NCBI GenBank assembly: GCA_963675665.1
Contig: OY776510.1
Location: forward strand, 1,792,001 to 1,856,000
Length of the DNA stretch: 64,000 nucleotides
From: Spirochaetia bacterium
GTDB taxonomy: Bacteria; Spirochaetota; Spirochaetia; UBA9216
Direction: 5' to 3'
A program made the position numbers and the translations under genes. How positions within the stretch are numbered: the first letter of the stretch is position 1; each line of letters starts with the position of its first letter. The notes beneath the pieces were generated by a model. It saw only the letters and a list, made by a program, of their open reading frames with translations, did no database searches and was not told where the DNA came from. Of this stretch, positions 2,340 through 19,827 are shown piece after piece.

Positions 2340-3243
2340 TACCCTTACAGCCGATTTGATGATCTTCTTTTCCGCCCTTCTCTGGGGCGGAGAATACGTT
2401 GTTGTTAAGGATATGCTTGATTATTTGCCTCCGAACTGGATAAACGCTTTGCGTTTTATTGCTGCAAGCCTGATAATGATACCGCTGTTCCGAAAGTATC
2501 TCCGGAGGCTGAACGCTGCCGAGCTAAAGGGCGGGGCGCTTCTCGGAGCGTTTATGTTCGGCGGGTTTACCCTGCAGACTATAGGTATTCAGTATACTAC
2601 AGCGGGAAAATCCGGGTTTCTGACATCAACTTATGTTGTTATGGTCCCTTTTATAGTATGGATATTCAAACAAAAATTCCCGGGCCTGAAATCCCTGGCA
2701 AGCGCTGTAATCCTGATTGCGGGTATTTCGCTGCTGTCGTTTGAAGGCGGCGGGGCGGGGCTTAACAAAGGCGACATGCTGACTCTTGGGGCCGCTCTTT
2801 GTTTCAGCGGAAGCATAATAGGTTTTGATTATTACTCAAAAAGATATCAGCCGATAAATCTGACCTTTGTTGAGATGCTGACAGGCGGTCTTTTGTCGCT
2901 TGTTATAGCTGTTTTTGCAGAGGATTTTCCCTCTTTCAGGGGGTACGGCGGGATGGAAATCTTTCAGATTCTGTATCTAGTTCTTCTTGGCTCGCTGCTT
3001 TGTCATGTACTTTCGAATGTGGCCATGAAATGGGCTGAACCGACCCATGCATCTATTCTGTGGTCGCTGGAATCGGTTTTTGCGTTGATCTTCGGAGTTA
3101 TTTTTCTTCATGAAACCATTAATCTCAGAATGTCCTTCGGGTTTGTGCTTGTGCTGATTGCCGTTGTTCTGACCGAAACGGGGGACGAGATAGCTTCGCA
3201 ATTCCGCGGGGTTATCTCGGCGGACCGAAAACGGAAAATATAA
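2323..3243 (+). CDS. DMT/EamA family transporter
   Basis: About 10 TM segments in two EamA repeats. Confidence 0.9.
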   Translation: MKIKNNTLTADLMIFFSALLWGGEYVVVKDMLDYLPPNWINALRFIAASLIMIPLFRKYLRRLNAAELKGGALLGAFMFGGFTLQTIGIQYTTAGKSGFLTSTYVVMVPFIVWIFKQKFPGLKSLASAVILIAGISLLSFEGGGAGLNKGDMLTLGAALCFSGSIIGFDYYSKRYQPINLTFVEMLTGGLLSLVIAVFAEDFPSFRGYGGMEIFQILYLVLLGSLLCHVLSNVAMKWAEPTHASILWSLESVFALIFGVIFLHETINLRMSFGFVLVLIAVVLTETGDEIASQFRGVISADRKRKI

Positions 3244-3299
3244 TATCTCCGGAATTAACCAGGTATAATGATCTTTTATTTTCTTTTATCTTCTTTTCC

Positions 3300-3360
3300 T
3301 TGCAAAAACAAATAACTAATGGTATCCTGAAAACGTTACCGGTATCGTTTCCAGGATACC
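3300..3360 (+). promoter_or_regulatory. Sigma70-like promoter overlapped by a 40-bp near-palindromic LacI-type operator
   Basis: TTGCAA-N17-TATCCT; GGTATCCTGAAAACGTTACC|GGTATCGTTTCCAGGATACC at 3321-3360 (2 mismatches). Confidence 0.75.
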
Positions 3361-3378
3361 GTGATAAAAGCAGGAAGT

Positions 3379-4383
3379 ATGACAGCTACAATTCGGGATA
3401 TAGCAGAGTATGCAGGGGTTTCAGTTTCAACAGTTTCAAGAGTTTTAAACGATAAACCTGATGTAAAAGAAGAAACCAGGCAGAAAGTTAATGAAGCAAT
3501 AAACAGGCTTGGTTACAGCCCGAATCTGGCTGCCAGGGGGTTGGTTCTTCAGAAAGCCAGCGTGATAGGTTTTATCACATCGGACATTACCAATCCGAAT
3601 TTTCCCGAACTGGCACGCGGGGTAGTTGCCCAGGCAAGAAAACATGGTTTTTCAGTAATGTTCTTTGATGCCAATAAAGACAGCAGGGTAGAGAAGGAGG
3701 CGATTGAGCTTCTCAGAAGCAAACAGGTCGACGGAATAATTCTTAATTTCGGCGAAACAGTTTCTGATGAATTGAAAAAGCTTAAAGCCGAGAATTTCCC
3801 CATAGTGCAAATTTACCGCAGAAAGGTCAGCACGGGGATATCAACGGTAGCTCTTGATAATATCGGGTCGGGCTATGCTGCGACATCATATCTTGCGGAA
3901 TTGGGGCACTGGAGAATCGGACATATTACCACAGGGGAAGGTTTTCAGTCGGGTTACGAAAGGCTGAAAGGTTATCGGAAGGGACTTTCGGGCGCCGGAA
4001 TAAGTTTCAATACTGCGCTTGTCCAGGTGGGAGTTAACAGTATTGATTCCGGCAAGGAATGCATGATGAACCTGCTGAAACTTGATCAGAAGCCGACCGC
4101 TGTATTTGTTTCGCATGATGTTATGGCCGTAGGCGCATATGAAGCAATATATTCAGCAGGGCTTAACATTCCCGAAGATATATCGGTAGTAGGACATGAT
4201 AATAATATCCTGTCCAGATCAGTCTGGCCGAGGCTTACAACAATTGATACGCATAAAAGCGAATTGGGAAAAGCAGGCGTCGATCTTCTTATTGAAGAGA
4301 TTGAGAATGAAGCGCCGTTAAATGAAGAAAGGGTTTTTGCAAGCGAATTGATTATCAGAAAGTCCTGTCGGTCGATTGTTTGA
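3379..4383 (+). CDS. LacI family transcriptional regulator
   Basis: TIRDIAEYAGVSVSTVSRVLN HTH plus PBP-like effector domain; ATG 3379 preferred over GTG 3361. Confidence 0.95.
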   Translation: MTATIRDIAEYAGVSVSTVSRVLNDKPDVKEETRQKVNEAINRLGYSPNLAARGLVLQKASVIGFITSDITNPNFPELARGVVAQARKHGFSVMFFDANKDSRVEKEAIELLRSKQVDGIILNFGETVSDELKKLKAENFPIVQIYRRKVSTGISTVALDNIGSGYAATSYLAELGHWRIGHITTGEGFQSGYERLKGYRKGLSGAGISFNTALVQVGVNSIDSGKECMMNLLKLDQKPTAVFVSHDVMAVGAYEAIYSAGLNIPEDISVVGHDNNILSRSVWPRLTTIDTHKSELGKAGVDLLIEEIENEAPLNEERVFASELIIRKSCRSIV

Positions 4384-4432
4384 GATTCAGGTTATGAAAA
4401 AAAACAGGCGATTGCTGTTTGATTTTTTTATA

Positions 4433-4470
4433 TTTTATTGAAAACGTTACCGGTAACGTTTTCAATAAAA
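4433..4470. promoter_or_regulatory. Perfect 38-bp palindrome, double LacI-type operator
   Basis: TTTTATTGAAAACGTTACC|GGTAACGTTTTCAATAAAA; same core as 3321-3360. Confidence 0.8.
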
Positions 4471-4503
4471 AAATGAATAAGGGATTATCCTTAAGGAGAT
4501 TTT

Positions 4504-5490
4504 GTGGTTTCAGAAAAGGATTTTATAGACAGATCTGTGGCGGCCATGGCGGCTCTTGGAATCGGCGATGCTGCGGGAGATTTGGGCAGGGATGATGCGG
4601 TTCGCCAGAAATTCGGCATAGTAACAAAACTGCTTCCCGAAGGGAAGAGTACCGATGATACGGAATTTACCGTACTTGCCGCACGCGCATTACTTGACAA
4701 CAGGGAAGACTTCACTCCGGCAGCAGTGGCCGACACATGGCGCAGGCTTGTTCTTTCGGACGGCGGCGCCAGGGAAAGGGGCGGTACGCCGCTATACGGA
4801 GCCTTATGGAATCTGTCGCAGGGTATTGAACCTCCGCTTTCGGGACAGGACAATACGCTGAATATAGACGACGGTGCGGCAATGAGGGCAGTACCCTTCG
4901 GTATTTTTTCCGGCGGAGATCCGAATGAAGCGGCACGCCTTGCCGGTATTGATGCATGTGTGAGTCATGATAAAGACGGCATCTGGGCCGCCCAGGCGAT
5001 TGCCGCCAGTGTTGCTGCGGCAATCGCCGGAGCAGCGCCGGATGATGTTGTTTCGACGGGGCTGAAGTTTATACCTGCAGACAGCTGGCTCGGACGACGC
5101 ATGAAACAGATGTCTGCAATTCTGGATGAAACTGATGATCCGTTTGAAAGATACGAAGCTCTTCATTCACGGTTATGGGCTCCGAGGCATTCCGTTTCGC
5201 CGGAAGCGATTCCCCAGATTTATGCTCTTTACAGAATGGCAAACGGAGATTTCAGGAAGGGGTTTATTCTTTCGGCCAATTTCGGCAGGGATGCAGACAC
5301 CGTCTGTGCTCTTGTGCTGGCTCTATGTGCAGCCGGTCAGGGGCAGTCCGTAATTCCGGATGAATGGATAGAGCAGGTCAGAAAACCTGCAGGGGTTTGT
5401 CTCGGATTCACCGTTAATGAAGATCTTGTTGATTTGGGAAAGCGGCTTGCAGAAGCTGCTTTGGAAGATGTCTCAAAGAGGAAAAAATGA
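4504..5490 (+). CDS. ADP-ribosylglycohydrolase family protein
   Basis: GDAAG, STDDTE and GRDADT metal-binding motifs; DGAAMRA. Confidence 0.9.
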   Translation: MVSEKDFIDRSVAAMAALGIGDAAGDLGRDDAVRQKFGIVTKLLPEGKSTDDTEFTVLAARALLDNREDFTPAAVADTWRRLVLSDGGARERGGTPLYGALWNLSQGIEPPLSGQDNTLNIDDGAAMRAVPFGIFSGGDPNEAARLAGIDACVSHDKDGIWAAQAIAASVAAAIAGAAPDDVVSTGLKFIPADSWLGRRMKQMSAILDETDDPFERYEALHSRLWAPRHSVSPEAIPQIYALYRMANGDFRKGFILSANFGRDADTVCALVLALCAAGQGQSVIPDEWIEQVRKPAGVCLGFTVNEDLVDLGKRLAEAALEDVSKRKK

Positions 5491-6386
5491 AAAAGGAATT
5501 GAGAAAGAAAATTTACCGGGACCGATATTTATATTTAATACTTCTGCCCGTCATGCTTTTCTTTGTCATCTGGCATTATGTTCCCATGTGGGGCGCGCGT
5601 ATAGCGTTTCAGGATATTAAATATATCGGAGCTAACGAGTGGGTCGGATTAAAGCATTTTCGTATACTTTTTTCTTCTCCCGTGTTTTTCAGGGTTTTTA
5701 TGAATACGCTGGTTATAAGCGCGATGAAAATTCTTCTTCTATTTCCGCTTCCGATTATACTTGCTTTCTTGTTTAATGAAGTCAGAAGTGCGGGATACAG
5801 AAGGATGCTGCAGAGTGTAATATATATTCCCCATTTTCTTTCATGGGTTGTTATCGCAGGTATTTTTATTTCACTGCTTGCTTCACCGGCCGGGGTTGTA
5901 AATAAAATTATTATTTTCTTCGGCGGCGAACCTGTTCCCTTTATGACTTCCACTTCACATATCCGCTGGGTTTTTGTTGTTTCGGAAGCCTGGAGAAGTA
6001 TCGGTTGGGATTCAATTCTATATATAGCGGCAATAAATAATATCAGTCCCGTTCTCTATGATGCTGCAGAAGTTGACGGTGCAAACAAATGGCAGCAGGC
6101 TGTTTCTATTACGCTGCCGGCGATTCTTCCCACCATTATCACCGTATTCATACTAAATCTCGGTTTTTTTATGAATGCCGGCTTTGATCAGGTCTTCAAT
6201 ATGATGAACGATGCGGTTATCAACAGTGTGGATATTATCGACACTTATGTTTACAGGGTTGGACTTATTAAAGGTAATTTTTCTCTCGGCACCGCCGCAG
6301 GTTTGTTTAAGGGCTGCATCGGGCTGGTGCTTGTTCTGTCCACGGACAGGTTGAGCCGCAAGGTTTCCGGGGAGGGTGTATGGTAG
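5487..6386 (+). CDS. Carbohydrate ABC transporter permease (LplB/YteP-like)
   Basis: PHFLSWVV; LYDAAEVDGA EAA loop. Confidence 0.92.
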   Translation: MKKELRKKIYRDRYLYLILLPVMLFFVIWHYVPMWGARIAFQDIKYIGANEWVGLKHFRILFSSPVFFRVFMNTLVISAMKILLLFPLPIILAFLFNEVRSAGYRRMLQSVIYIPHFLSWVVIAGIFISLLASPAGVVNKIIIFFGGEPVPFMTSTSHIRWVFVVSEAWRSIGWDSILYIAAINNISPVLYDAAEVDGANKWQQAVSITLPAILPTIITVFILNLGFFMNAGFDQVFNMMNDAVINSVDIIDTYVYRVGLIKGNFSLGTAAGLFKGCIGLVLVLSTDRLSRKVSGEGVW

Positions 6387-7270
6387 GAAGGCGGAGAAGG
6401 AATACCCTTGTATATATTATTATTCTTGTTGTTCTCGGAATACTTGCGCTGGTAATGATCTATCCAATCTATAACCAACTGGTTATTTCGCTTACCGGTT
6501 CGGAATATATTGCTGAAGCGGACGGAACCACATTGATTCCACGTGATTTTACTATTGATACATATAAACATGTTCTGGCTATTCCCAAAGTTTACCGCGG
6601 TATCCTAAACAGTTTACTGATTACCGGTCTGGGTTTGTTTGTAAATATAGTCCTGTCAAGTATGGGAGCATATGTTTTGATAAACAAGGACCTGGCCGGT
6701 CGTCAGGTTTTCATGACGATGATTGTAATCACAATGATTTTTGAAGCAGGACTTATTCCCGATTATTTTCTGATGAAAGATCTTCACCTGCTGAACAGGT
6801 ACTGGTCGGTTGTTTTGTATAAAGCGGTTAATCCTTATTACCTGATTATACTGATGCGGTTTTTTACCGCTGTTCCGAAATCCCTGATTGAAGCGGCCAG
6901 AATAGACGGATACGGAGATTTTAGGATTTTATTTAAAATCGTAATTCCTATAAGTATTCCCGGAATAGTAACTATCAGCCTCTTTTACGGTGTTTTTCAC
7001 TGGAACGAATATTTCAGAGCCATGATATACCTGACGGATGAAGCTAAATGGCCGTTGCAGGTAATATTGAGAGAATTGATTGTGTCCATGGAAAAGGCCG
7101 CGTTCATAGGCGGAACAAATTTCCAGAGACTTACAGGCGCGGCTGCAATAGATTTTAAAGCTATAAAAGCGTCGCTGATTATTATTGCAATTCTGCCGAT
7201 TCTTGTTTTCTATCCCTTTATCCTGCGTTATTTCGTAAAGGGCCGGACTTCAGGAGCGGTAAAAGAATAG
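6380..7270 (+). CDS. Carbohydrate ABC transporter permease
   Basis: EAARIDG loop; WNEYF; KWPLQ. Confidence 0.92.
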   Translation: MVGRRRRNTLVYIIILVVLGILALVMIYPIYNQLVISLTGSEYIAEADGTTLIPRDFTIDTYKHVLAIPKVYRGILNSLLITGLGLFVNIVLSSMGAYVLINKDLAGRQVFMTMIVITMIFEAGLIPDYFLMKDLHLLNRYWSVVLYKAVNPYYLIILMRFFTAVPKSLIEAARIDGYGDFRILFKIVIPISIPGIVTISLFYGVFHWNEYFRAMIYLTDEAKWPLQVILRELIVSMEKAAFIGGTNFQRLTGAAAIDFKAIKASLIIIAILPILVFYPFILRYFVKGRTSGAVKE

Positions 7271-7300
7271 AAAAGTCAACCATATTTCAGGAGGTTACGT

Positions 7301-8707
7301 ATGAAAAAAATTGTAGTAGCGGGATTGATTCTTCTGACAGTGCTTTCCGGTGTTTTTGCCGGAGGGGCCCAGGAAGAAGCCGTTGCCCAGGATGGTGTTA
7401 CTACTATCCGAATTGTCGCCAAGGATTTTCCGGCTTCGGATCCGGCAAACATTGCGCATCTGAGGCAGATCGAAACAGCGTTTGAGTCGTATTCAGGCAA
7501 GAAGATTGCACTGGAACTTGTACCGGTTCCGGAGGGAGCATACTCAGAGAAGGTTAACCTTATGCTGCTTTCCGGTGATATTCCCGATCTGATCTATTTT
7601 CAGGGAGGCGATGATGTAATTGCCAACCAGGGGCTTCTTGTAGACCTTGGCCCGTATGTTGAAAAATCTCCGGTCATGCAGAATGTATTGATGGATTTCA
7701 ACAAACAGAGGCTGGAAAACTATCCTTACCTGCTCTGGCTTGCTCCTCCCCGTGCCCGTACTGCATTGGTAAGAGACGACTGGTTTAAAGAGGCGGGCGG
7801 AAAAATCCCCGTAACGGTTGATGATTATTATAAATTGTTCACAGCAATTAAAAAGAATCATCCTGATGTACCCGTAATGACGGATACAGGCAATACCGAT
7901 CGAATGGATTATACTTTTAACCATGCATTCGGGCTTACGGCAACCTGGGTGAAAGAAAACGGCGGGTATGTTTATAATAAGGTCAGTTCCGGAAGCAGGG
8001 ACAAGCTTGCTTTTTATCAGAAACTTTTTGCCGAAGGTCTTCTGGATTCCGAATACGTTACTACCAAATGGGACACCATGGAAGACAAGTTTTATACCGG
8101 CAGAGTTGCCCTTGTTTACGGTACGGCAGGTATTGTTCTTGACATCTATGGAAACAAGCTGATAGAGACTCAGGGCACTGATGTTGTTGCCCTGCCGCCG
8201 GCAAAAGGTGTAGGCCGGGGATATGCTGTATCATCGGCTAAAGAAACAAGAGGTTGGGCGATAAGTTCCACATCAGAGCATCCGGACCTGGTCTTTGAAC
8301 TGCTTGAGTTTCTTGCTACCGACGAGGGGCAGTATCTTGACAGATACGGTATTGAGGGAACACATTATAATATGGAGAACGGAAAGGTTGTATTTACCGA
8401 CGAAAAAGCAAACTGGTGGCCCCACTTCCATGAAGTAATGAGCTGGGAAGCTCCCACTCCCCTGCTTGGCCCTGCCGGTCTGAAAGGCTGGGAATTTATA
8501 CAGAAATATTCAGTCGGAGATCCGGATTTTCCGATTCCCGAAGAACTGTCTCCAACATGGGATGCTCTTGAGAATCTTTACAAGGAATACAGTTACAAGA
8601 TTATCAGCGGTGAATACGGTATCGACAAATTTGATGAGTTCAAAGCTGAATGGTATAAACTCGGCGGCGATAAGGTAACAGCTTATGCCAATGAAGTTTT
8701 AAAATAA
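7301..8707 (+). CDS. Carbohydrate ABC transporter substrate-binding protein
   Basis: Signal peptide ending FAGGAQE; SGDIPDL; YGIEGTHY. Confidence 0.9.
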   Translation: MKKIVVAGLILLTVLSGVFAGGAQEEAVAQDGVTTIRIVAKDFPASDPANIAHLRQIETAFESYSGKKIALELVPVPEGAYSEKVNLMLLSGDIPDLIYFQGGDDVIANQGLLVDLGPYVEKSPVMQNVLMDFNKQRLENYPYLLWLAPPRARTALVRDDWFKEAGGKIPVTVDDYYKLFTAIKKNHPDVPVMTDTGNTDRMDYTFNHAFGLTATWVKENGGYVYNKVSSGSRDKLAFYQKLFAEGLLDSEYVTTKWDTMEDKFYTGRVALVYGTAGIVLDIYGNKLIETQGTDVVALPPAKGVGRGYAVSSAKETRGWAISSTSEHPDLVFELLEFLATDEGQYLDRYGIEGTHYNMENGKVVFTDEKANWWPHFHEVMSWEAPTPLLGPAGLKGWEFIQKYSVGDPDFPIPEELSPTWDALENLYKEYSYKIISGEYGIDKFDEFKAEWYKLGGDKVTAYANEVLK

Positions 8708-8775
8708 TTTTTAATTATCAGGAAAAGGGCCCGGGAGGAACTCTTCCGGGCTTTAATTTACGGAGGTGAAAATCA

Positions 8776-10872
8776 GTGGATCCGAAACTATACCTTGAGA
8801 AGGTTTACGGAGGACTGATCGGTAAATGCGCCGGCGTAAGACTCGGCGCTCCTGTTGAACCCACCATATGGACTTACGAGCGAATCAGGGAAACATACGG
8901 GGAGATTACCGGTTACATCAAAGACTATAAAAACTTCGCAGCAGATGATGATATAAACGGACCGCTTTTTTTTATCAGAACTCTTATAGACCACCCGGGG
9001 CCGGTAACGCCCCTGAATGTCGGAAGAGCCTGGCTGAATTATACACGTGAGGGGATTGGCTTTTATTGGTGGGGCGGGTACGGCCGAAGTACCGAACATA
9101 CCGCGTATCTGAATCTCAAGGATGGTATTGATGCTCCCGAATCAGGCAGTATAAAAATAAACGGGGAAACCATCGCCGAACAGATAGGCGGACAGATATT
9201 TATTGATTCGTGGGGTTGGGTTATTCCGGACAACCCCGGTGAAGCTGCGCGCCACGCGGCTATGGCCGCTTCGGTAGGACACGACCGCAACGGTATTTAC
9301 GGCGCTAAATTTATTGCAGCCTGTATTTCACTGGCTTTCTCGGACATGGACATATCGCGGATAATCGACAGGGCTTTAACTGAAATACCCCCTGAATCCG
9401 AATACGCGCGGGTTGTCAAAGCCGTAAGGGATTATCACAGTTTTTCGCCGGACGACTGGCGCGGCGCACGGCAGTTTCTCGAAGTAAACTTCGGTTATGA
9501 TCGTTATGGCGGAGTCTGCCATATTATTCCAAACGCCGGTGTTTGTGCGCTTGCCCTGTATTACGGGAACGGCGATTTTTCCCGTACCATCGAGATTGCA
9601 ACGATGTGCGGCTGGGACACCGACTGTAATGCCGGCAATACCGGCGCCATTTTGGGTGTGCTTGCAGGGCCCCGCGGTATTCCGGAACGATACAGAAGGC
9701 CAATCAATGACTGGCATGCCGCAAGCTCAATATCGGGTGCTTTAAACAATATAAACCTGCCTTCCGCAAGCCGCGAGCTGGCTGTTTTGGGATTAAGACT
9801 GAAAGGAGAAAGTGTTCCCGAAGAATGGCTGGACGGCTGTTTCAGCGATGATATTGTGCTTGATTTTTCTCTTCCCGGAGCTACAGCCGGGATAAGGACC
9901 AGTTCCAGTTACCTTGCCCCGATATCCCCCGGCCGGGACTTTTACTCGGACGGCGGGCTGGTAATACTGCTGGACCGGCTGGTAAGGGGCGATACGGCGC
10001 GAATCTTTTATAAGCCCTTTTATCAGCGTGAAGATTTTGATGACGAGCGCTATAAACCGACATTTACTCCGACTGCATTTCCCGGCCAGCAGTTTCTAAT
10101 AAAAGGCAGGGTTTCCCGGATAAGCGGACAGCGAATTGCCTTGGCGCCTTATGTTGCGGATGCGAAAACAAAAAAAATAATTCAGGGAGAATATATCTTT
10201 CCGGATGATAAAGATGATTTTGAATTTAACTGGGTGCTGCCCGGAGTCCCTTTTGCAATTAGTGAAACCGGACTGCTGGCAACCAATTTCGATAGTGAAA
10301 AATACCTGGGAAAGATTGTACTTGATGAATTTTCGGTTTCAGGCAAGCGTGAATTCGATATACAATTTGCCGATGAATCCGAGGCCTTCCAGGGTTTGTC
10401 GCGTTGTTCGGCAGTCGGCGGATACTGGGCTGTAGAGGACGGATCTTTGCATGTAATAACCCGGGATGAGTTCCTGCTGTTTGCAGGGCCTTACTATACC
10501 GCAGACAGCGAGATCTCCGCCGAACTTGTTCCTGAATACGGCGAAAGCCACTTACTTTCATTCAGGTCCCGCGGAGCTGAATACGGTTACTTTTTCGGCC
10601 TTCACGGCGGCAACAGAGTTGCGCTGCTTAAAAAAGACGGTGATGTAGCCGTGTTGTCTGAGCAGGATTTTAAATGGCAGCCGGGAGGCAACTATACTCT
10701 TGAAGTGTCAGCGGTAACTTCTGAAGAAGGATTGATTATTACATGCGGCATAAACGGCACCGGATTAATAAAACATATCGATAAGACTCCGCATCCCTAT
10801 GGAATGGCCGGGCTCGGCAAAATCAAACCGGGAAGAACCCGGTTTGTTAATCTTCATGTCAGGGAGCTGTAG
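8776..10872 (+). CDS. Long ADP-ribosylglycohydrolase family protein with C-terminal beta-rich extension
   Basis: GVRLGAPVE, ADDDING and GWDTDCNAG motifs; about 340 extra C-terminal residues. Confidence 0.88.
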   Translation: MDPKLYLEKVYGGLIGKCAGVRLGAPVEPTIWTYERIRETYGEITGYIKDYKNFAADDDINGPLFFIRTLIDHPGPVTPLNVGRAWLNYTREGIGFYWWGGYGRSTEHTAYLNLKDGIDAPESGSIKINGETIAEQIGGQIFIDSWGWVIPDNPGEAARHAAMAASVGHDRNGIYGAKFIAACISLAFSDMDISRIIDRALTEIPPESEYARVVKAVRDYHSFSPDDWRGARQFLEVNFGYDRYGGVCHIIPNAGVCALALYYGNGDFSRTIEIATMCGWDTDCNAGNTGAILGVLAGPRGIPERYRRPINDWHAASSISGALNNINLPSASRELAVLGLRLKGESVPEEWLDGCFSDDIVLDFSLPGATAGIRTSSSYLAPISPGRDFYSDGGLVILLDRLVRGDTARIFYKPFYQREDFDDERYKPTFTPTAFPGQQFLIKGRVSRISGQRIALAPYVADAKTKKIIQGEYIFPDDKDDFEFNWVLPGVPFAISETGLLATNFDSEKYLGKIVLDEFSVSGKREFDIQFADESEAFQGLSRCSAVGGYWAVEDGSLHVITRDEFLLFAGPYYTADSEISAELVPEYGESHLLSFRSRGAEYGYFFGLHGGNRVALLKKDGDVAVLSEQDFKWQPGGNYTLEVSAVTSEEGLIITCGINGTGLIKHIDKTPHPYGMAGLGKIKPGRTRFVNLHVREL

Positions 10873-10881
10873 TATAGCTGT

Positions 10882-11148
10882 ATGAAAGCCGCGGCAGGGA
10901 AGACCGAAAAGGGAGATTCTCTGGTTACAGTATACCGAAGCAACTCTGATGAATGCAAAGTAACAATAAATTCGCCCGTAAGAGAGATGTTTAAAGAACT
11001 TCAGGATAATGCTGTTTATACGGCACTTGAAGAAACCGGGGCTGAAGGTCTGACTGTTGAAGTAAATGATTATCAGGCTCTTGATTTTGTGCTGACGGCC
11101 AGGGTAAAGGCTGCATTGTTCCGCCTCCGGGAAAAGGAAGAAGGATGA
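10882..11148 (+). CDS. citD: Citrate lyase acyl carrier protein-like (gamma subunit), attachment Ser absent
   Basis: AG..E..D N-terminus and ALDFVLTARVKAALFR C-terminus; upstream of citE and citF. Confidence 0.75.
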   Translation: MKAAAGKTEKGDSLVTVYRSNSDECKVTINSPVREMFKELQDNAVYTALEETGAEGLTVEVNDYQALDFVLTARVKAALFRLREKEEG

Positions 11149-12005
11149 GAAGCTGGCTTTATGTACCTGCCGACAGGCCTAAAATGATTATCAATGCAGG
11201 AATTTACGGTGCGGACGGGATTGTCTTTGATCTTGAAGATTCGACTGGCGCCGGGGAGAAAGATGAAGCCCGGATACTTGTTGCCGAGGTATTCAGGCGT
11301 TATGATTTTTCGCCGGGCGCAGAAAGGCCTTCCGTGTTGTGCGTTCGCATAAACGGCCTTGACTCCGGGTTGTGGCGCGAGGACCTTGAATCGCTTATAC
11401 CGGCCGGAGTCAGACTGATAAGGATTCCTAAAGTAGAAAGCCGTGAGCACGTTCTTGAGGTTTGCGGGCTCCTGGAAAAGCTTGAGGCGGCTGAAGATCT
11501 GGTTCCCGGTGCGGTAAAAATTCAGGCAATTCTGGAAACACCGAAAGGCGTAGAGAATGTTTTTAACATTGCGGATGCCTCGCCGAGGCTTTCCGGCCTG
11601 AGTTTCGGCGCCGAGGATTTCTGTGCTTCCGCAGGTCTTGACCGATCAGGACCGGCATACATTCTTGATTATCCAAGAAGCAGAATTGCCAACGGCGCTG
11701 CAGCCGCAGGTATTGAAGCCTGGGACACAGTCTGGTCGAATTATACCGATCTGCAGGGCCTCCGCGAAGATGCCCTGCGTGCACGGAATCTCGGATTTTC
11801 CGGAAAATCGGTCATACACCCGGATCAGATAGAAATTGTAAACAGTATCTTCGCCCCGACAGAAGTGCAGATTGAATGGGCCAAAAAAATCCTGTCTGCG
11901 GCTTCGGATGAATCCGGGGTTTTCGGGGTTGACGGTATGATGGTGGATGCTCCCGTTATTGCGAGGGCCAGGCGGATACTCGGCAGCGGAGAAGCCGATG
12001 TCTGA
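11145..12005 (+). CDS. citE: Citryl-CoA lyase-like protein (CitE/HpcH family)
   Basis: RSWLYVP, FDLEDS, VRING, LETPKG, FGAEDF, GKSVIHP and MVDAPV motifs. Confidence 0.9.
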   Translation: MRSWLYVPADRPKMIINAGIYGADGIVFDLEDSTGAGEKDEARILVAEVFRRYDFSPGAERPSVLCVRINGLDSGLWREDLESLIPAGVRLIRIPKVESREHVLEVCGLLEKLEAAEDLVPGAVKIQAILETPKGVENVFNIADASPRLSGLSFGAEDFCASAGLDRSGPAYILDYPRSRIANGAAAAGIEAWDTVWSNYTDLQGLREDALRARNLGFSGKSVIHPDQIEIVNSIFAPTEVQIEWAKKILSAASDESGVFGVDGMMVDAPVIARARRILGSGEADV

Positions 12006-13398
12006 ACGGCCGAAGAGTTTAAAAGAAGCTGTCGGCGCTTCCGGTCTTAAAAACGGAAGCCGAATAAGTTTTCATCACCATCTGAGACTCGGTGACAGGG
12101 TTGTGGAACAGGTACTGATGTTGCTCGGTTCCATGGGGTTTAAAAACCTGACGCTTTGTGTTTCTTCATTGATGGGCAGTTCATGCGAAGCTGTGCTTGA
12201 AGCGATAAAGTCCGGCGTAGTCTGTGCAATCGAAACAACAGGCTTGAAAGAACCTGTCGCATCAGCAATGCTTGAAGGCCTTATTCCCAATCCTGTTATT
12301 TTCCGGAGCCACGGCGGCAGGGCCAAAGCGATTGCGTCCGGCCGTATAAAAATAGATGTCGCTTTTATAGCTGTTTCGGCTGTGGACAGGGCCGGAAATG
12401 CAAACGGGACTGACGGGCCGAACCGTTTCGGTTCATTAGGGTATGCTCTTGTCGACGCCGATTATGCAGCGCATGTAATTCTTGTCAGCGATTATATTTC
12501 CGAAGCGCCCCTCGGGATGATAAGCATTCCGGCGGAAAAAGCCGATCAGATAGTCATGGTAGACTCCATTGGCGACAGGGCGGGAATTTTCGGGGGGTCC
12601 ATCAGAATCTCGAGCAGTCCCGTTGAACATCTGATTGCGCGCAGGGCTTTATCTGTTCTTGACGCATCGGGAGTGATAAAACATGGATTTGCCTTTCAGG
12701 CCGGAAGCGGGGGCGTCAGCCTTCTTGTTTCACGGATGGTATCTGATCTGATGCGTACCAGGGGTATTACAGGAGAATTTGCCGCCGGCGGGGCAACCGG
12801 TACTCTGTCGGAATTGTTAAAGGAGGGGCTGTTCAGGCGACTGTATGATGTGCAGAGTTTTGACGATGAAGCTGCGCTGTCGTTAAAAAGTAACCCCAAT
12901 CACATCGAGATGAGCGCGTCTCTCTATGCCGACCCGGACAACCCGGACTGTATCGCGCATAAACTTGACGTAATGATTCTTTCCGCCACAGAGGTGGATT
13001 ATGATTTTAATATTAATTCAATAACCGGCAGCAACGGACGTATTCTCGGAGCTCTCGGCGGAGCCCCCGATACAGCAGCCGGCGCCGGCCTGACTGTTGT
13101 TGTTCTGCCGTCCTTTCGAAATCGTATTCCGACGGTAAGAAACCGGGTTCATACAATCTGTACTCCCGGGAAAACAGTAGACGTTATCGTTACCGAAAGA
13201 GGTATCTGTATAAATCCGGAGCGTCCTGATATTGTTGAAGCTGCTGACAGGGCCGGGATTCAGGTTGTTTCCCCGGAAAATCTGAGCCGTCTGGTATGCA
13301 AAATTACCGGTGTTCCGGATTATCCCGTGAAAGGAAAAAAACTTGCAGGGATTGTTGAATACCGGGACGGTTCTATTCTTGACAGAATATTCATTTGA
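11998..13398 (+). CDS. citF: Citrate lyase alpha subunit-like CoA transferase
   Basis: ISFHHHLR, RSHGGRA, GSLGYA, DVQSFD and EYRDG motifs; start moved to ATG 11998. Confidence 0.9.
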   Translation: MSERPKSLKEAVGASGLKNGSRISFHHHLRLGDRVVEQVLMLLGSMGFKNLTLCVSSLMGSSCEAVLEAIKSGVVCAIETTGLKEPVASAMLEGLIPNPVIFRSHGGRAKAIASGRIKIDVAFIAVSAVDRAGNANGTDGPNRFGSLGYALVDADYAAHVILVSDYISEAPLGMISIPAEKADQIVMVDSIGDRAGIFGGSIRISSSPVEHLIARRALSVLDASGVIKHGFAFQAGSGGVSLLVSRMVSDLMRTRGITGEFAAGGATGTLSELLKEGLFRRLYDVQSFDDEAALSLKSNPNHIEMSASLYADPDNPDCIAHKLDVMILSATEVDYDFNINSITGSNGRILGALGGAPDTAAGAGLTVVVLPSFRNRIPTVRNRVHTICTPGKTVDVIVTERGICINPERPDIVEAADRAGIQVVSPENLSRLVCKITGVPDYPVKGKKLAGIVEYRDGSILDRIFI

Positions 13399-13442
13399 CT
13401 GCCGTAGTTGATAATATCCACCCTTTATAATAATATTCAATC

Positions 13443-14231
13443 ATGCAGAGAATAGGTTTCTTGGGAGCCGGAAACATGGCTTTTGCCATAGCCGGAGCGA
13501 TCTCGGAAAAGTTTGATGATGTAGTCATAGTCCCTTATGATATAGCGGAAGAGCGGATTAAATTATTCGCAGCAAGTTTCAGAAATGTTGAGCCGGTTTC
13601 AGACCCTGCCGATTTTGCGGACAGGTGCGACGTGCTTTTCCTGTCGGTAAAACCGCAGATGATGAAAGACGCAATAGCGCCTCTTTCCGGATTCAGCGGA
13701 TTGGCGATTTCGATAGCAGCCGGCCTTAAGATTACATTTTATGAAGAGCTGATGCCTGATGCGCGTATAATAAGGGTTATGCCGAACACGCCCTGTCTTG
13801 TAGGGGAGATGGCTGCAGGCTATGCCGCAGGCCGAAGCGTAACGGATAAGGACATGGCTGTTGCAGAAAGGCTTTTAAAAGCCGCCGGGACAGCCGTGGT
13901 TGTAGACGAATCCAGAATTGATGCAGTGACGGGCGTTTCCGGTTCCGGGCCGGCATATTTTGCCCGGATTGTCGAGGCTTTTATTGAAGCCGGTATTAAA
14001 GGCGGCCTGTCTTCGGAGCTGTCGCGTGAACTGGCTCTGCAGACAATGAGAGGCACCGCTGCATTGCTTCAGCAGAAGAATATGAGTCCCGAAGAGCTGG
14101 TAAAGATGGTCAGTTCGCCGAACGGCACAACCGTCGCCGGGCGGGAAGTGCTCGAAGCATCGGATTACAGGGAAGTTATAGGCCGTACCGTGGCCAGAAC
14201 AATAGAGCGAAGCAGGGAGCTTGGAAAATGA
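13443..14231 (+). CDS. proC: Pyrroline-5-carboxylate reductase
   Basis: GAGNMA, VKPQ, RVMPNTP, SGSGPAY, SPNGTT. Confidence 0.95.
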   Translation: MQRIGFLGAGNMAFAIAGAISEKFDDVVIVPYDIAEERIKLFAASFRNVEPVSDPADFADRCDVLFLSVKPQMMKDAIAPLSGFSGLAISIAAGLKITFYEELMPDARIIRVMPNTPCLVGEMAAGYAAGRSVTDKDMAVAERLLKAAGTAVVVDESRIDAVTGVSGSGPAYFARIVEAFIEAGIKGGLSSELSRELALQTMRGTAALLQQKNMSPEELVKMVSSPNGTTVAGREVLEASDYREVIGRTVARTIERSRELGK

Positions 14232-15505
14232 ATTTAAGCGTACGGACAAGAAAGCTGAAGGAATCTTCATACCGTCTTGCAGCAGTCAGTGGAAAATTAA
14301 GAAACGAAGCACTTCTGAAAACTGCAGCTGCGCTGCGCAGTAATGCTGATCTGATAATTGGTGAAAACAAAAAGGACCTCGAAAACGCAGAGAAGCAGCA
14401 GCTTGCTTATGCACTGGTTAAGCGGCTTTCGATCAATGAATCAAAGCTTGATCAGATGGCCTCAGGACTGGAATCTCTGGCAAACCTTCCGGATCCGCTC
14501 GGTAAAACATCACTGAAGCGCGAACTTGACAAGGGTCTGGTTCTTGAGCGGATAAGCGTGCCGATTGGCCTTATAGGGGTTATTTTTGAGTCGAGGCCCG
14601 ACGCGCTTGTCCAGATTGCCGGGCTCTGCATTAAAAGCGGCAATACGGTTATTCTCAAGGGCGGTTCGGAAGCGCTGAATTCCAACCGGATTCTTTCCGA
14701 ACTGATTGTCGACGCGGTTGAAGCGGTATCAGATGATTTTCGCGACACAATAATGCTGGTTGAAAGCCGCGAAGACATAAATACTCTGCTCGGGTTCGAT
14801 CAGTATATAGATCTGATGATACCGAGGGGATCGAACGCTCTTGTTCGTTATATAATGGACAACACAAAGATTCCCGTTATGGGACATTCCGACGGCATCT
14901 GCCATATGTATGTTGATGAAAATTTTGAGCTTGAGCAGGGTCTTGAGTTAATCCGGGATGCGAAATGTCAGTATCCGGCAGTTTGCAACGCTATCGAAAC
15001 GCTGCTTGTTCATGAGAAATCGGCTGAAAAGCTGATTCCGCTGCTGCCCGGAAAGATGCCTGAAGTCAGGCTGCTCGGCGATGAGCGGACCTGTGAACTG
15101 ATAGATGCGGCACCGGCCTCCGATGAAGACTGGGATACCGAATACAATGATCTGGTATTGTCAGTCAGGGTGGTCGGCGGGCTTGCCGAAGCTGTTGATT
15201 TTATAAACCTGCACGGCAGCCATCATACCGATTGCATACTGACGACGGATGAAGAAAACGCAAGGTTTTTCATGATGAACGTAGATTCAAGCTCGGTGAT
15301 GAAAAACTGTTCAACCCGCTTTGCCGACGGTTTCAGGTACGGTTTCGGCGCCGAGGTGGGGATATCCACCGGCAAGATACACGCCCGCGGCCCGGTGGGG
15401 CTTGAGGGGCTGACCATATATAAATATTTTCTTAACGGCGAAGGACACACGGTAAAACCATATGCCGACGGCGATAAGGAATTTACTCATAAGGATATGC
15501 AATGA
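14228..15505 (+). CDS. proA: Gamma-glutamyl phosphate reductase
   Basis: FESRP, CNAIETLL, FGAEVGIST, HARGPVG. Confidence 0.95.
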   Translation: MNLSVRTRKLKESSYRLAAVSGKLRNEALLKTAAALRSNADLIIGENKKDLENAEKQQLAYALVKRLSINESKLDQMASGLESLANLPDPLGKTSLKRELDKGLVLERISVPIGLIGVIFESRPDALVQIAGLCIKSGNTVILKGGSEALNSNRILSELIVDAVEAVSDDFRDTIMLVESREDINTLLGFDQYIDLMIPRGSNALVRYIMDNTKIPVMGHSDGICHMYVDENFELEQGLELIRDAKCQYPAVCNAIETLLVHEKSAEKLIPLLPGKMPEVRLLGDERTCELIDAAPASDEDWDTEYNDLVLSVRVVGGLAEAVDFINLHGSHHTDCILTTDEENARFFMMNVDSSSVMKNCSTRFADGFRYGFGAEVGISTGKIHARGPVGLEGLTIYKYFLNGEGHTVKPYADGDKEFTHKDMQ

Positions 15506-16275
15506 AGCTTTTGGTCAAAATAGGCTCGGCATTAATCAGCCGTGACAACAGAATAGATTATAACTGGCTCAAGGACAAGGTTAATGAACTTGCGGCGCTC
15601 TACCGCGAAGGGGTGAAGCTGATAATTGTCAGTTCGGGGGCAGTTGCCGCCGGCATGGAGATACGAAGCCTCAGAACACGCCCGACCGATACGGTAAGCC
15701 TTCAGATGCTTTCGGGAATGGGACAGGTCCGGCTCAGTAAATATTACAAGGATCTCTTCAAGGAAAAATACATCTTCACGGCGCAGTTGCTTCTGACTCA
15801 TCATAATTTCGATAACGAATCTGAAGTGGGCGCGATAATTGAAATCCTGAACCGCTGCCTAGACGAGGGCGTAATACCGATTATTAATGAGAACGACATG
15901 GTCAACAAGGAAGAGTTTGATTCGGAGGGAAATTTTACCGACAACGATATTCTTGCGGCCTTTGTCGCTTCATCGGTTAAGGTCGACAAAGCCCTTATCC
16001 TGACGAATGTCGACGGGCTTTATGCAGAGAATCCGCATAACGGCGGGAATGACAAGCCGAAGCTGATCACCCGCGTTGAGAAGATAGATGATAATATTAA
16101 ATCAATGGCGGCAGACGGTAAAAGCGGTCTGGGCCTCGGAGGTATGAAGTCGAAAGTCCTTGCCGCAGAAATGATAACCGGGGCCGGGATCGAAACGATT
16201 GTAGCGAACGGTAATTATTCAATAATTGATATCCTTGAAAACAAAGCGCCCGCGACAGTATTTACTGTGTTATAG
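15502..16275 (+). CDS. proB: Glutamate 5-kinase (short form, no PUA domain)
   Basis: VKIGS, VSSGAVAAG, NEND, DND, GGMKSK. Confidence 0.93.
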   Translation: MKLLVKIGSALISRDNRIDYNWLKDKVNELAALYREGVKLIIVSSGAVAAGMEIRSLRTRPTDTVSLQMLSGMGQVRLSKYYKDLFKEKYIFTAQLLLTHHNFDNESEVGAIIEILNRCLDEGVIPIINENDMVNKEEFDSEGNFTDNDILAAFVASSVKVDKALILTNVDGLYAENPHNGGNDKPKLITRVEKIDDNIKSMAADGKSGLGLGGMKSKVLAAEMITGAGIETIVANGNYSIIDILENKAPATVFTVL

Positions 16276-16291
16276 TAAAAACGGAGTGTTT

Positions 16292-16966
16292 ATGAAAAAG
16301 TTATCTTTATTTATTGCAGTTCTGTCGGTGCTTCCGGTGCTGTTGTTTGCCGGAGGGAAAACTGAAGTTTCCGGTGTTCCGGCTATGGTAGACGGGGTAA
16401 TCGAATATCTTGAAGGTTCTGTTACTGTAAATAATGAGACTGCGGATTTCGGGATGAAAATTCCTTACGGGGCAATCGTAAAAACAGGTCCTGAATCGTA
16501 CTGTGAAATAGTATTCGACAGCAAGAACATTTTCAGGGTAATGGAGTCAACGGTTGCAACAATTAAGCTTTCGGTTAATGACCCGGAAATACTGATAGAG
16601 AAGGGAGCTTTAGGCGCTTTTTTTGCCAAACTTGATTCTTTTACAAGCGATGAACCCTTTAAAATCAGGACACAAACAACCCTTGCAGGGATAAGGGGCA
16701 CCGCTTTTTTTGTAAAGGCTGTTGATGCTGAAACTACATATGTCTGTATATGCAACGGAGAAATTGAACTGTCCGAAACCGACGGGAGCAATTCTGCTGA
16801 TTTCAGTTCGGGCCATCACAAGGCGGCATGGTACCGGGGAAAAGAAGGCGACATTGAAATCAGCAGCGCACCGCTGCTGTACCATAATGATGAAGATATG
16901 AATAAGCTGGCTGATCGGATAGGCGAAAAAATCCCCTGGGATGACAACTATAATACGGAGTACTGA
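16292..16966 (+). CDS. Exported FecR-domain protein
   Basis: Signal peptide MKKLSLF..FAGG; KTGPES and AGIRGTAF motifs. Confidence 0.75.
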   Translation: MKKLSLFIAVLSVLPVLLFAGGKTEVSGVPAMVDGVIEYLEGSVTVNNETADFGMKIPYGAIVKTGPESYCEIVFDSKNIFRVMESTVATIKLSVNDPEILIEKGALGAFFAKLDSFTSDEPFKIRTQTTLAGIRGTAFFVKAVDAETTYVCICNGEIELSETDGSNSADFSSGHHKAAWYRGKEGDIEISSAPLLYHNDEDMNKLADRIGEKIPWDDNYNTEY

Positions 16967-16974
16967 TATATCGC

Positions 16975-17652
16975 ATGACATACAAAGGAATAATCTTTGA
17001 TTTCAACGGGACCCTTATATGGGACACCCCGCTTCACAAGGAAGCATGGCTTAGGTTCAGTCGTGAGCTTGACGTTGAACTGACGGAAAAGCGCTACTAT
17101 AATGATGTTCACGGGCGGTCTACGAAAAATATACTGGAACTTCTTCTGGAACGTAAACTGGGCTCCGATGAATACGAATATCTTTCAAATCGAAAAGAGT
17201 CTTTATACATGCAGGCCTGTCTTGATAACCCGGATATTTACTGTTTTGCGCCGGGGGTTAACGATTTTCTCGATTACCTTGTAAAAAAGAATATTCCAAG
17301 AACAATCGCAACAGCCTCCGACAGGCAGAACCTTGATTTTTTTATTGAAACCCTTGAACTTAACCGCTGGTTTGATACCGAACTGTTTGCCTATGACGAC
17401 GGGCACATTAAGAACAAGCCTGAACCGGACCTTTATCATAAAGCCGCAGAGAAACTCGGAACTGAAGTTGAATCGCTTGTTGTAGTTGAGGATACATTTT
17501 TCGGTGTTCTTGCCGCCAAAAACGCAGGCGCCGGCTACCTTATAGTAACCGGACCTGCCGAAGACCAGCATGATGAATTGGACGGTCTGGAGGGGATTGA
17601 CCAGTTTATTTCCGACTTTACCGAGATTGATAGAAATCTATTTTCCGTGTAA
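16975..17652 (+). CDS. HAD family phosphatase (beta-PGM/CbbY-like)
   Basis: FDFNGTL, KPEPD, VVEDT. Confidence 0.88.
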   Translation: MTYKGIIFDFNGTLIWDTPLHKEAWLRFSRELDVELTEKRYYNDVHGRSTKNILELLLERKLGSDEYEYLSNRKESLYMQACLDNPDIYCFAPGVNDFLDYLVKKNIPRTIATASDRQNLDFFIETLELNRWFDTELFAYDDGHIKNKPEPDLYHKAAEKLGTEVESLVVVEDTFFGVLAAKNAGAGYLIVTGPAEDQHDELDGLEGIDQFISDFTEIDRNLFSV

Positions 17653-19009: not shown

Positions 19010-19064
19010 ATCTCCTGTTTGATAATGTTGATACCTATCATAATTGTAAAATACAGCTCAAAGC

Positions 19065-19092
19065 AGGCAGAATTTAGGCAAAATCAAGGCAG
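19065..19092. promoter_or_regulatory. Three AGGCA direct repeats at 11-bp period, candidate OmpR-family binding site
   Basis: AGGCAG at 19065, AGGCAA at 19076, AGGCAG at 19087, between divergent creD and the regulator. Confidence 0.6.
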
Positions 19093-19130
19093 TTGCTTGC
19101 AGTTCGGCAGCTATGTGATATTGTATTCTT

Positions 19131-19814
19131 ATGCATACCGTAGCCGTAATTGATGATGAAAGAAATATACGAAGCCTGATTAACCTTGCATTGGGGAAGG
19201 AAGGCTATAATGTTACAGAGTATTCCGATGGAGAGTCCGCCTGGATCGGACTGCAGACCGGGATGCCCGATGTGATTGTTCTGGATATAATGATGCCGAG
19301 GATGAACGGACTTGAGCTGTGCCGCAGAATAAAAGAAGTGAACCCTTCTGTTCCCGTTATATTCCTTTCCTCAAGGGATGATGAGTACGACAAAGTGCTC
19401 GGACTTGATTCCGGCGGAGATGATTATGTATGTAAACCGTTCAGCATGATGGAGCTTACGGCAAGAATCAGGGCGGCGGTAAGGCGGTCGGGAGCAGCGT
19501 TCCAGACTACAGGCGCCGTATACGACATAGAATGCGGACCTTTATCAATGTGTACGCCGGAGCTGGCAGTAAGCTGGAAGGGGGCCCAGATAAAATTATC
19601 AGTGACTGAATACAGGATCCTGTGCTTGCTTGCTTCCGCCCCCGGAACGGTACGCACCCGGGAGCAGCTTATGGAGGCCGCGTTTCCTGAAGATTCCTAC
19701 GTTAACGAAAGAGCCGCAGACAGTCATATCAAGCGGATTCGCAGGAAAATCAAGGATGTTGATCCTGATGCTGAAATCATTGAAGCTGTTTACGGTTTGG
19801 GTTACAGGCTTTGA
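19131..19814 (+). CDS. OmpR-family response regulator (ChvI/CreB-like)
   Basis: REC domain plus winged helix (DSHIKRIRRK, VYGLGY). Confidence 0.93.
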   Translation: MHTVAVIDDERNIRSLINLALGKEGYNVTEYSDGESAWIGLQTGMPDVIVLDIMMPRMNGLELCRRIKEVNPSVPVIFLSSRDDEYDKVLGLDSGGDDYVCKPFSMMELTARIRAAVRRSGAAFQTTGAVYDIECGPLSMCTPELAVSWKGAQIKLSVTEYRILCLLASAPGTVRTREQLMEAAFPEDSYVNERAADSHIKRIRRKIKDVDPDAEIIEAVYGLGYRL

Positions 19815-19827
19815 ACGGGAAAAGAAT

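Follow-up and report, generated by a model that had tools for sequence, protein, structure and literature searches.

We analysed a 64,000-nucleotide (nt) stretch of DNA from a Spirochaetia bacterium (NCBI GenBank assembly GCA_963675665.1, contig OY776510.1, positions 1,792,001 to 1,856,000 of the forward strand), which is called the window below and whose positions are counted from its first letter. Near its beginning lies a LacI-family repressor gene followed by a row of genes that combines two hydrolases of the ADP-ribosylglycohydrolase (ARH) fold, the parts of a sugar-type ATP-binding cassette (ABC) importer and three subunits resembling those of citrate lyase (CitD, CitE and CitF). The source genome consists of one contig of 5.15 Mb and is 96.4% complete. 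The genes of this row, their best profile matches and two putative operator sites are:

3329-3352, no strand: putative operator copy ahead of lacI, with 2 mismatches to the core palindrome
3361-4383, + strand: LacI-family repressor (PF00356 76 bits, PF13377 112 bits; CytR, RbsR and PurR are the top NCBIfam matches, all below cut-off)
4433-4470 (core 4440-4463), no strand: putative operator ahead of the short ARH gene, a perfect 38-bp palindrome
4504-5490, + strand: short ARH-fold hydrolase, 328 amino acids (aa) (PF03747 143.3 bits against a cut-off of 26.2, profile positions 2-287)
5487-6386, + strand: ABC permease 1, CUT1 sugar type (BPD_transp_1, Pfam)
6380-7270, + strand: ABC permease 2, CUT1 sugar type (BPD_transp_1, Pfam)
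7301-8707, + strand: periplasmic solute-binding protein, SBP (SBP_bac_1, PF01547 89 bits)
8776-10872, + strand: long ARH-fold hydrolase, 698 aa (PF03747 192.9 bits against 26.2, residues 12-305, profile positions 1-287)
10882-11148, + strand: CitD-like subunit (PF06857 62.8 bits; TIGR01608 49 bits against a cut-off of 63.5)
11145-12005, + strand: CitE-like acyl-coenzyme A (CoA) lyase of the citryl-CoA type (PF03328 173 bits; TIGR01588 241.3 bits against 443.4)
11998-13398, + strand: CitF-like CoA-transferase subunit (PF04223 489 bits; TIGR01584 533 bits against 501.45)

An earlier note on this DNA had described the series short ARH-permease-permease-SBP-long ARH-citD-citE-citF as one tightly coupled row, and coordinates, domain matches and spacing agree with that description. 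No gap between neighbouring genes exceeds 68 nt, and where genes overlap they share 4-8 nt. Overlaps are found between the short ARH and permease 1 genes (4 nt), the two permease genes (7 nt), citD and citE (4 nt) and citE and citF, and gaps between permease 2 and the SBP (30 nt), the SBP and the long ARH (68 nt) and the long ARH and citD (9 nt). The longest open reading frame (ORF) of citF begins at 11947, and the ATG at 11998 matches the point where the homologue alignments begin. The two ARH genes and the citF gene of this row are the only ones of their kinds in the genome.

The earlier note had treated the ARH and cit genes as parts of one system, and their synteny recurs in other genomes: in six spirochaete loci, in all 10 copies of the corresponding CitF clade in a class sample and, rearranged, in clusters of Bacillota. 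We fetched 80 loci around long-ARH homologues in species genomes of Spirochaetota and Bacillota and mapped the window proteins and their neighbours onto them. ABC genes (any of permease 1 or SBP) are kept in 76 of these loci, and exactly two ARH genes are present in 64. CitE and/or CitF occur in 14, AtuA (PF07287) together with DUF4387 in 53 and a set of the citryl-CoA synthetase/lyase type in one, and no locus combines two of these lyase systems. Six of the 14 Cit loci are spirochaete loci with the gene order of the window, carrying CitD/E/F behind the long ARH (L005-L008, L012 and L013). In Bacillota, CitDEF belongs to ARH/ABC clusters with a rearranged gene order (L020, L028, L034, L038, L042, L060 and L065), four of which show the order LacI-permease-permease-SBP-ARH-CitD-CitE-CitF divergent from the long ARH, while three contain a full CitDEF set with CitC, CitG and CitX. 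The remaining Cit locus, L084, has a CitE fusion only; it lies on a contig labelled as a Paracoccaceae metagenome-assembled genome (MAG) and shows a Bacillota-like ARH/ABC cluster at 13442-17205. Behind it lie genes for a 592-aa protein, whose C-terminal domain is of the HpcH/CitE type, and for a 662-aa protein that contains an FGE-sulfatase domain. The neighbouring genes scanned, in the window and in 18 related loci, showed no domains of other kinds. In some clusters PF00756 esterase genes were seen (L033:7554-9956 and L077:12111-12869); the L033 esterase is an 800-aa protein with S-layer-homology domains and is probably extracellular. Such esterases may release the substrate from larger ester-linked material.

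The class sample comprised 151 genomes, 30 of which hold CitF, in two identity groups. All 10 CitF loci of the group with 53-100% identity to the window protein adjoin a gene of the long-ARH type, although this gene is a pseudogene in G101 and a divergent, 33%-identical paralogue in G123. In G101 (C175:16305-18406, L149) the long ARH is broken by several in-frame stop codons, with two TGA in one half and two TGA, two TAG and one TAA in the other; the neighbouring CitD/E/F genes stay open. The 20 CitF loci of the group with 41-49% identity are ordinary citrate-lyase operons, none of which has a long ARH and half of which (10/20) have CitC, CitG or CitX within 1.5-kb flanks. Five sampled genomes hold both kinds of CitF, and in G137 CitG lies ~17 kb from the second copy. 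Because it is conserved across phyla, the ARH/ABC/cit arrangement exceeds chance; judged by gene order, the link between the ARH/ABC core and citDEF is not accidental. A literature search found no description of an ARH/ABC/citDEF operon; the papers that mention an ADP-ribosylglycohydrolase, an ABC transporter and citrate lyase together appear to be genome or transcriptome lists.

By full-length profile match and acidic motifs, both hydrolases of the row are members of the ADP-ribosylglycohydrolase family (PF03747). The motifs D57-D58-D59 and D281-T282-D283 of the long ARH are invariant across 14 long-ARH homologues, and the short ARH reads STDDTEF and GRDADTV at the corresponding motifs. We take the N-terminal D-D and the C-terminal D-x-D-T to form the binuclear metal site of ARH proteins, a mapping presumed from the ligands of ARH3 and DraG rather than from a superposition. 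To our knowledge, every characterised ARH acts at ribose C1'', and the characterised family members all act on ADP-ribosylated macromolecules or O-acetyl-ADP-ribose. The window proteins share the fold and the invariant acidic motifs with the ARH/DraG/Tri1 hydrolases but are located in a sugar-import operon and score far below the equivalog cut-offs: the short ARH reaches 46 bits against the DraG model (cut-off 337) and 30.5 bits against the Tri1 model (cut-off 490). With best PDB E-values of 1e-5 and 0.007, the two proteins are far from every solved ARH. Orthologues of the short ARH are present in related clusters at 35-70% identity, and the long ARH belongs to a family of ~700-aa proteins with more than 4500 database matches and 47-68% identity among the best 120.

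The long form differs further from the known ARH/DraG/Tri1 hydrolases by ~390 additional residues of lectin-like β-sandwich. An AlphaFold2 (AF2) model of residues 331-698 (368 residues; predicted local distance difference test, pLDDT, 88.7; predicted template-modelling score, pTM, 0.82) shows two β-sandwiches, for which the best Foldseek matches are the galactocerebrosidase lectin domain, CBM66 (4b1m) and legume-type lectins. The match to CBM66, which we take to be a binder of terminal fructofuranose, has a TMt score of 0.80-0.82, a root-mean-square deviation of ~2 Å and 17-18% identity. As modelled, these lectin/CBM66-like domains fit a glycan-holding role. A literature search on ribofuranosidases or ribosylhydrolases returned only reviews on poly(ADP-ribosyl)ation (PARylation).

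The importer is represented by two BPD_transp_1 permeases and an SBP_bac_1 binding protein, as is typical of CUT1-type systems, and the permeases match the UgpA/E, MalF/G and archaeal GlcT/U models (NCBIfam) below their cut-offs. No ABC_tran domain was found among the operon genes, and a shared ATPase elsewhere in the genome was not searched for; since the operon has no ATPase gene, the ATPase must come from elsewhere. The nearest solved relatives of the binding protein are AlgQ1/AlgQ2 and the 5gx8/5gub family (PDB phmmer E 6e-14 to 1e-12), presumably binders of acidic oligosaccharides.

The cit genes were set apart from an ordinary citrate lyase in the earlier note, and the proteins bear this out. 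Relative to the citrate lyase of E. coli (citCDEFXG; EC 4.1.3.6), the adjacent genes have the same gamma-beta-alpha order and CitF passes its equivalog model (TIGR01584), but CitE and CitD fail theirs (TIGR01588 with 241 against 443 bits, and TIGR01608), CitF falls into a separate clade with a long stem, and the genes are found within an ARH/ABC operon and not beside a citrate carrier. The window CitE keeps the columns that E. coli, canonical and ARH-linked CitE share without exception, among them DLED, VR.N, E138 and GAED. The clearest difference concerns CitD. In an alignment anchored by the invariant flanking Gly and Asp, Lys10 of the window protein occupies the column of E. coli CitD Ser14, which we take to be the carrier of 2'-(5''-phosphoribosyl)-3'-dephospho-CoA. 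This column holds Lys in the window and six related loci (7/7) and Lys or Arg in all nine ARH-linked spirochaete CitDs of the class sample. Of 19 canonical CitDs from this class, 18 have Ser and one, that of L104, has Ala; the Bacillota ARH-linked CitDs have Ser in 7/7. The Ala-type CitD of L104, from a 1.8-Mb genome (G002), has as its neighbour a CitF that shares 49% identity with the window protein and takes a basal position in the canonical clade. The occurrence of Arg in place of Lys makes a role of this column as covalent carrier unlikely.

The loss of the carrier Ser is accompanied by a lack of accessory genes. In the genome of the window, neither CitG nor CitX gave a match, and for CitC there was only a 24-bit match covering 65 positions of a 163-aa ORF elsewhere. 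CitG was also not found in any of four other spirochaete genomes with only an ARH-linked CitF (completeness 78-97%). CitG does occur in G137, a genome with an additional canonical CitF set, and in each of the four Bacillota genomes in which the ARH-linked CitD has retained Ser. Since Lys replaces the carrier Ser of CitD and the genome is without CitC, CitG and CitX, we conclude that the complex cannot use a tethered thioester. Isolated subunits of the classical citrate lyase accept CoA thioesters. In a structure prediction, a complex of CitF, CitE and CitD-like proteins scored 0.89 and a control with CitF replaced 0.80, so that the prediction is uninformative on binding.

In a quick tree of CitF, with the Shimodaira-Hasegawa-like approximate likelihood-ratio test (SH-aLRT) as its sole measure of support, the spirochaete ARH-linked sequences form a clade of 15 rows with support of 100 and a stem of 0.6. 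Four Bacillota ARH-linked sequences make up a second clade, again with support of 100, and the ARH-linked sequences of the CitCGX type are nested among canonical citrate lyases. The tree shows at least three putatively separate recruitments of CitF to the ARH/ABC core. CitD proteins without the carrier Ser extend well beyond these loci. A search with a Lys/Arg-CitD profile identified 1035 relatives in a library clustered at 50% identity; the best 150 contain 70 Lys, 19 Arg and 45 Ser at the carrier column, which places Lys/Arg CitD in at least 89 clusters at 50% identity among these 150 cluster representatives. Ten clusters were sampled, and their named members, annotated as citrate lyase acyl carrier protein (ACP) or gamma subunit, include Acidaminococcus proteins. 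They also include ~375-aa proteins named from Methanomicrobia MAGs, which are CitD-CitE fusions that their sources call citrate lyase ACP or beta subunit.

Other loci carry different lyases in the position of CitDEF. The AtuA proteins match PDB entries 9ERQ/9EVF at E 1e-120 to 1e-135 and DUF4387 does so at 2e-32. The chains of these entries were named citramalate lyase CmlA and CmlB by their depositors, and about half of the aligned residues of AtuA are identical to CmlA (by eye). CmlAB of Raoultella planticola (Berg laboratory) is reported, in a 2026 preprint that uses the enzyme, to cleave citramalate directly to pyruvate and acetate (10.64898/2026.01.16.699985). Its fold is unrelated to that of CitDEF. 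CmlAB-like genes take the same place in homologous ARH/ABC clusters (53/80 loci) and never occur together with CitEF; for these reasons CmlAB most likely carries out the corresponding reaction, in which a 2-hydroxy-2-substituted succinate loses acetate. PF07287 was not found in the genome of the window, in a search in which control genomes gave no match either.

In L162 (G148; 9183-12455) and L163 (G128; 2418-6509), the LacI-ARH-ABC-ARH row is followed by SucC-like, SucD-like and citryl-CoA lyase genes. The SucC-like protein carries the citrate-binding domain of ATP-citrate lyase (PF16114), and the lyase exceeds the cut-off of NF004869 (243.5 against 212 bits). L160 (G058) and L014 show only a SucC-like gene after the long ARH, at the contig end. 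The two-step cleavage of citrate by citryl-CoA synthetase and citryl-CoA lyase (CCS/CCL) is known from Hydrogenobacter. This system replaces CitDEF behind the same row in L162 and L163 and works through a free thioester of the citryl-CoA type, like the mechanism proposed below, but it activates the acid with ATP and CoA instead of CoA transfer and is absent from the window. G128 additionally has a CN_hydrolase gene of the amidase type between the long ARH and the SucC/SucD/lyase genes, a hint that some substrates contain an amide bond. Finally, two Bacillota loci, L042 and L034, encode CitE proteins above the citrate-lyase cut-off (454.8 and 443.9 bits against 443.4) and CitF proteins of 763 bits, with CitC, CitG and CitX present. 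Because several unrelated citrate- or citramalate-cleaving systems have been joined independently, and in a mutually exclusive manner, to one core, the imported compound would contain citrate or a very close analogue.

Evidence for the sugar comes from kinases. The earlier note had assigned release of a sugar to the ARHs, and this receives indirect support from ribokinase-like PfkB genes, which are present in 46 of the 80 long-ARH loci. In four PfkB kinases that were scanned, ribokinase is always the best match; that of L042 passes TIGR02152 (352.8 against 299.65 bits), and the other three, with 252-294 bits, are just below the cut-off. Ribose-utilisation loci of Bacteroidetes (Rus polysaccharide utilisation loci, PULs) also recruit ARH genes (Glowacki et al., bioRxiv 10.1101/574913). 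They are described there as nutrient loci containing ribokinases and variable hydrolases, including ADP-ribosylglycohydrolases that are likewise uncharacterised, and the authors propose that ribose is freed from unknown ribose-containing nutrients. Unlike the window operon, these loci use SusC/D-type uptake and not a CUT1 ABC importer, and the passages of the preprint on ADP-ribosylglycohydrolases mention no acid lyase (10.1101/574913).

Control by LacI, as postulated in the earlier note, gains weight from the two putative operators, the perfect palindrome ahead of the short ARH and the copy with two mismatches ahead of lacI. Shuffled sequences gave two matches in 0/100 cases, and a scan of the whole genome with up to three mismatches to the 20-mer core returned these two sites only. 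Among the 80 related loci, paired sites were found only in six (L007, L008, L009, L011, L012 and L016), all from spirochaetes and all with LacI on the + strand. The sites flank only lacI and the short ARH, with no operator copy ahead of citD or proC. Generic scans returned 18 promoter-like sites (20.5 expected from shuffles) and 17 terminator-like sites (16.2 expected), in line with chance, and a hairpin at 10824-10846 falls inside the long ARH gene, with a T tail that is poor. Gene spacing and synteny are what suggest the extent of the transcript.

We favour, with a confidence somewhat above even, the view that this is a LacI-repressed catabolic operon for a probably acidic glycoconjugate, in which a ribofuranosyl or other furanosyl unit or units are attached to citrate or a close analogue and the lyase works on free acetyl-CoA. 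We infer the following steps. The conjugate, most likely citrate or a very close analogue that bears one or two units of ribofuranose or a similar furanose, would be imported by the binding protein and the two permeases. In the cytoplasm, the two ARH-fold enzymes would act as glycosidases and free the sugar, with the long ARH holding the glycan by its lectin-like C-terminal domains, and the sugar would pass to a ribokinase encoded elsewhere in the genome. The CitD/E/F-like complex would then split the freed acid into acetate and a 2-oxo acid, oxaloacetate in the case of citrate. In this reaction, CitF would move CoA from free acetyl-CoA to the acid, CitE would cleave the acyl-CoA and thereby regenerate acetyl-CoA, and CitD may be retained as a structural or CoA-binding subunit. 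The system is a combination of known kinds, namely a sugar-type catabolic operon, ARH hydrolases and a citrate lyase; the Ser-less CitD and the sister operons of the CCS/CCL type are new points from this window.

Several observations weigh against this proposal. The window operon contains no ribokinase; the highest-scoring ribokinase-like candidate in the genome is ~540 kb away and, at 233 bits, falls short of the cut-off. We know of no compound of ribose and citrate, and a phrase search of the literature did not find a ribosyl-citrate compound. The acid is not pinned down, because the back ends are split between citrate (CCS/CCL and canonical CitDEF) and citramalate (CmlAB), and it may differ from citrate, because neither CitE nor CitD reaches the cut-off of its citrate-lyase equivalog model. 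That CitF would most likely take free acetyl-CoA as donor is deduced from the missing parts. In 12 of the 80 loci all three lyase systems are missing; the sequence of four stops no more than 439 bp past the long ARH, but L059, L079 and L081 have full 10-kb flanks and yet no lyase system. Likewise, G095 and G071 (SBP-long-ARH) and G053 (long ARH only) have no lyase gene within 1.5 kb downstream. Loci from related genomes are not independent, as illustrated by L012 and L097, whose CitF proteins are identical.

An unlikely alternative, but the one that survives best, keeps the same operon logic and takes the acid to be (S)-citramalate or another 2-substituted malate, so that the CitD/E/F-like complex would be a citramalate-type lyase yielding acetate and pyruvate. 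The classical citramalate lyase of Clostridium has the architecture of citrate lyase. The most frequent of the other back ends (53/80 loci) is closely homologous to CmlAB, the CitE of the window is far below the citE cut-off (241 against 443), and aerobic Bacillus and Paenibacillus would need no special lyase for citrate. However, the CCS/CCL-type back end has the citrate-binding domain of ATP-citrate lyase and a citryl-CoA lyase over its cut-off, the CitE and CitF of L042 and L034 pass the citrate-lyase cut-offs and are accompanied by CitC/G/X, and an identity to CmlA of about one-half leaves the substrate specificity unfixed.

Distinctly unlikely, in our view, is that the ARHs cut a non-ribosyl bond, such as that of another furanoside or a pyranoside, or an ester or amide link with the acid, and that the kinases phosphorylate a different sugar. 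Such an activity would be in line with the distance of both ARHs from solved members of the family (best PDB E 1e-5 and 0.007), the resemblance of the long ARH C-terminus to the presumed fructofuranose binder CBM66, the PF00756 esterases of some clusters and the CN_hydrolase of G128; moreover, a ribokinase-like gene is found in only 46/80 loci, and of the four scanned only that of L042 exceeds the cut-off. Against it stand the retained acidic motifs, the action of all characterised ARHs known to us at ribose C1'', the consistent best match of the scanned kinases to ribokinase and the (weak) best matches of LacI to CytR, RbsR and PurR.

We regard as very improbable a regulatory or repair function, in which the ARHs would remove ADP-ribose from a protein in a DraG-like manner, for example to switch the transporter or the lyase on. 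The characterised ARHs that we know of, with their ADP-ribosylated macromolecules or O-acetyl-ADP-ribose as substrates, would favour it. However, the only two ARH genes of the genome are both in a sugar-type ABC operon under LacI, the scanned neighbours in the window and 18 related loci bring no other domain kinds, and the scores against the DraG and Tri1 equivalogs are far below the cut-offs. In addition, the co-occurrence of two to four ARH paralogues with ribokinase and with four unrelated lyase types would not be accounted for by a regulator of a single enzyme. That citDEF is an ordinary citrate lyase placed by chance behind an unrelated sugar operon is barely credible and largely refuted by synteny: CitF does exceed the citF equivalog cut-off and co-transcription is deduced from spacing and synteny, but all 10 loci of the CitF clade in the class sample have an adjoining ARH, Bacillota show the pairing in a rearranged form, the carrier Ser is lost, CitC/G/X are absent, five sampled genomes with this clade have a second CitF of lower identity elsewhere, and only 9 nt separate the long ARH from citD.

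Two further ideas were dropped. Action of the ARHs on the ribosyl-ribose bond in the prosthetic group of CitD does not agree with a core that is also joined to CmlAB and to CCS/CCL, which are not known to us to use a prosthetic group of the CitD type, or with a window CitD that has no attachment Ser. Methanopterin, bacillithiol, glycosyl-glycerates, α-ribazole and citrate siderophores, considered as candidate substrates, fit no lyase back end.

Downstream of citF, proC, proA and proB (13443-16275) trail on the same strand after a gap of 44 nt. They were not found behind the cluster in related loci and are for this reason probably a separate unit. Further on, a creD-like gene on the - strand (NCBIfam CreD 387 bits, over the cut-off) lies beside creB/creC-like two-component genes on the + strand (17618-21396), whose CreB and CreC matches are under their cut-offs.

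A broader proposal, which we offer tentatively and consider rather doubtful, is that an undescribed and widespread (oligo)ribofuranosyl citrate is a common nutrient in sediment, soil and gut, that the ARHs of these operons are a new class of ribofuranosidases and that the Ser-less CitD marks a large family of prosthetic-group-free lyases working on free acetyl-CoA. If so, an abundant environmental metabolite would still be unknown to chemistry, and the four unrelated citrate- and citramalate-cleaving systems on one core would guide the search for it unusually sharply, with the binding protein and the LacI/operator pair as handles for ligand capture. Citrate lyase, a textbook prosthetic-group enzyme, would have a large branch without its prosthetic group that is mis-annotated as acyl carrier protein, and a complex working with free CoA thioesters would become testable. 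The ARH fold, known almost only for reversing protein ADP-ribosylation, would have a second and much commoner role as a catabolic glycosidase.

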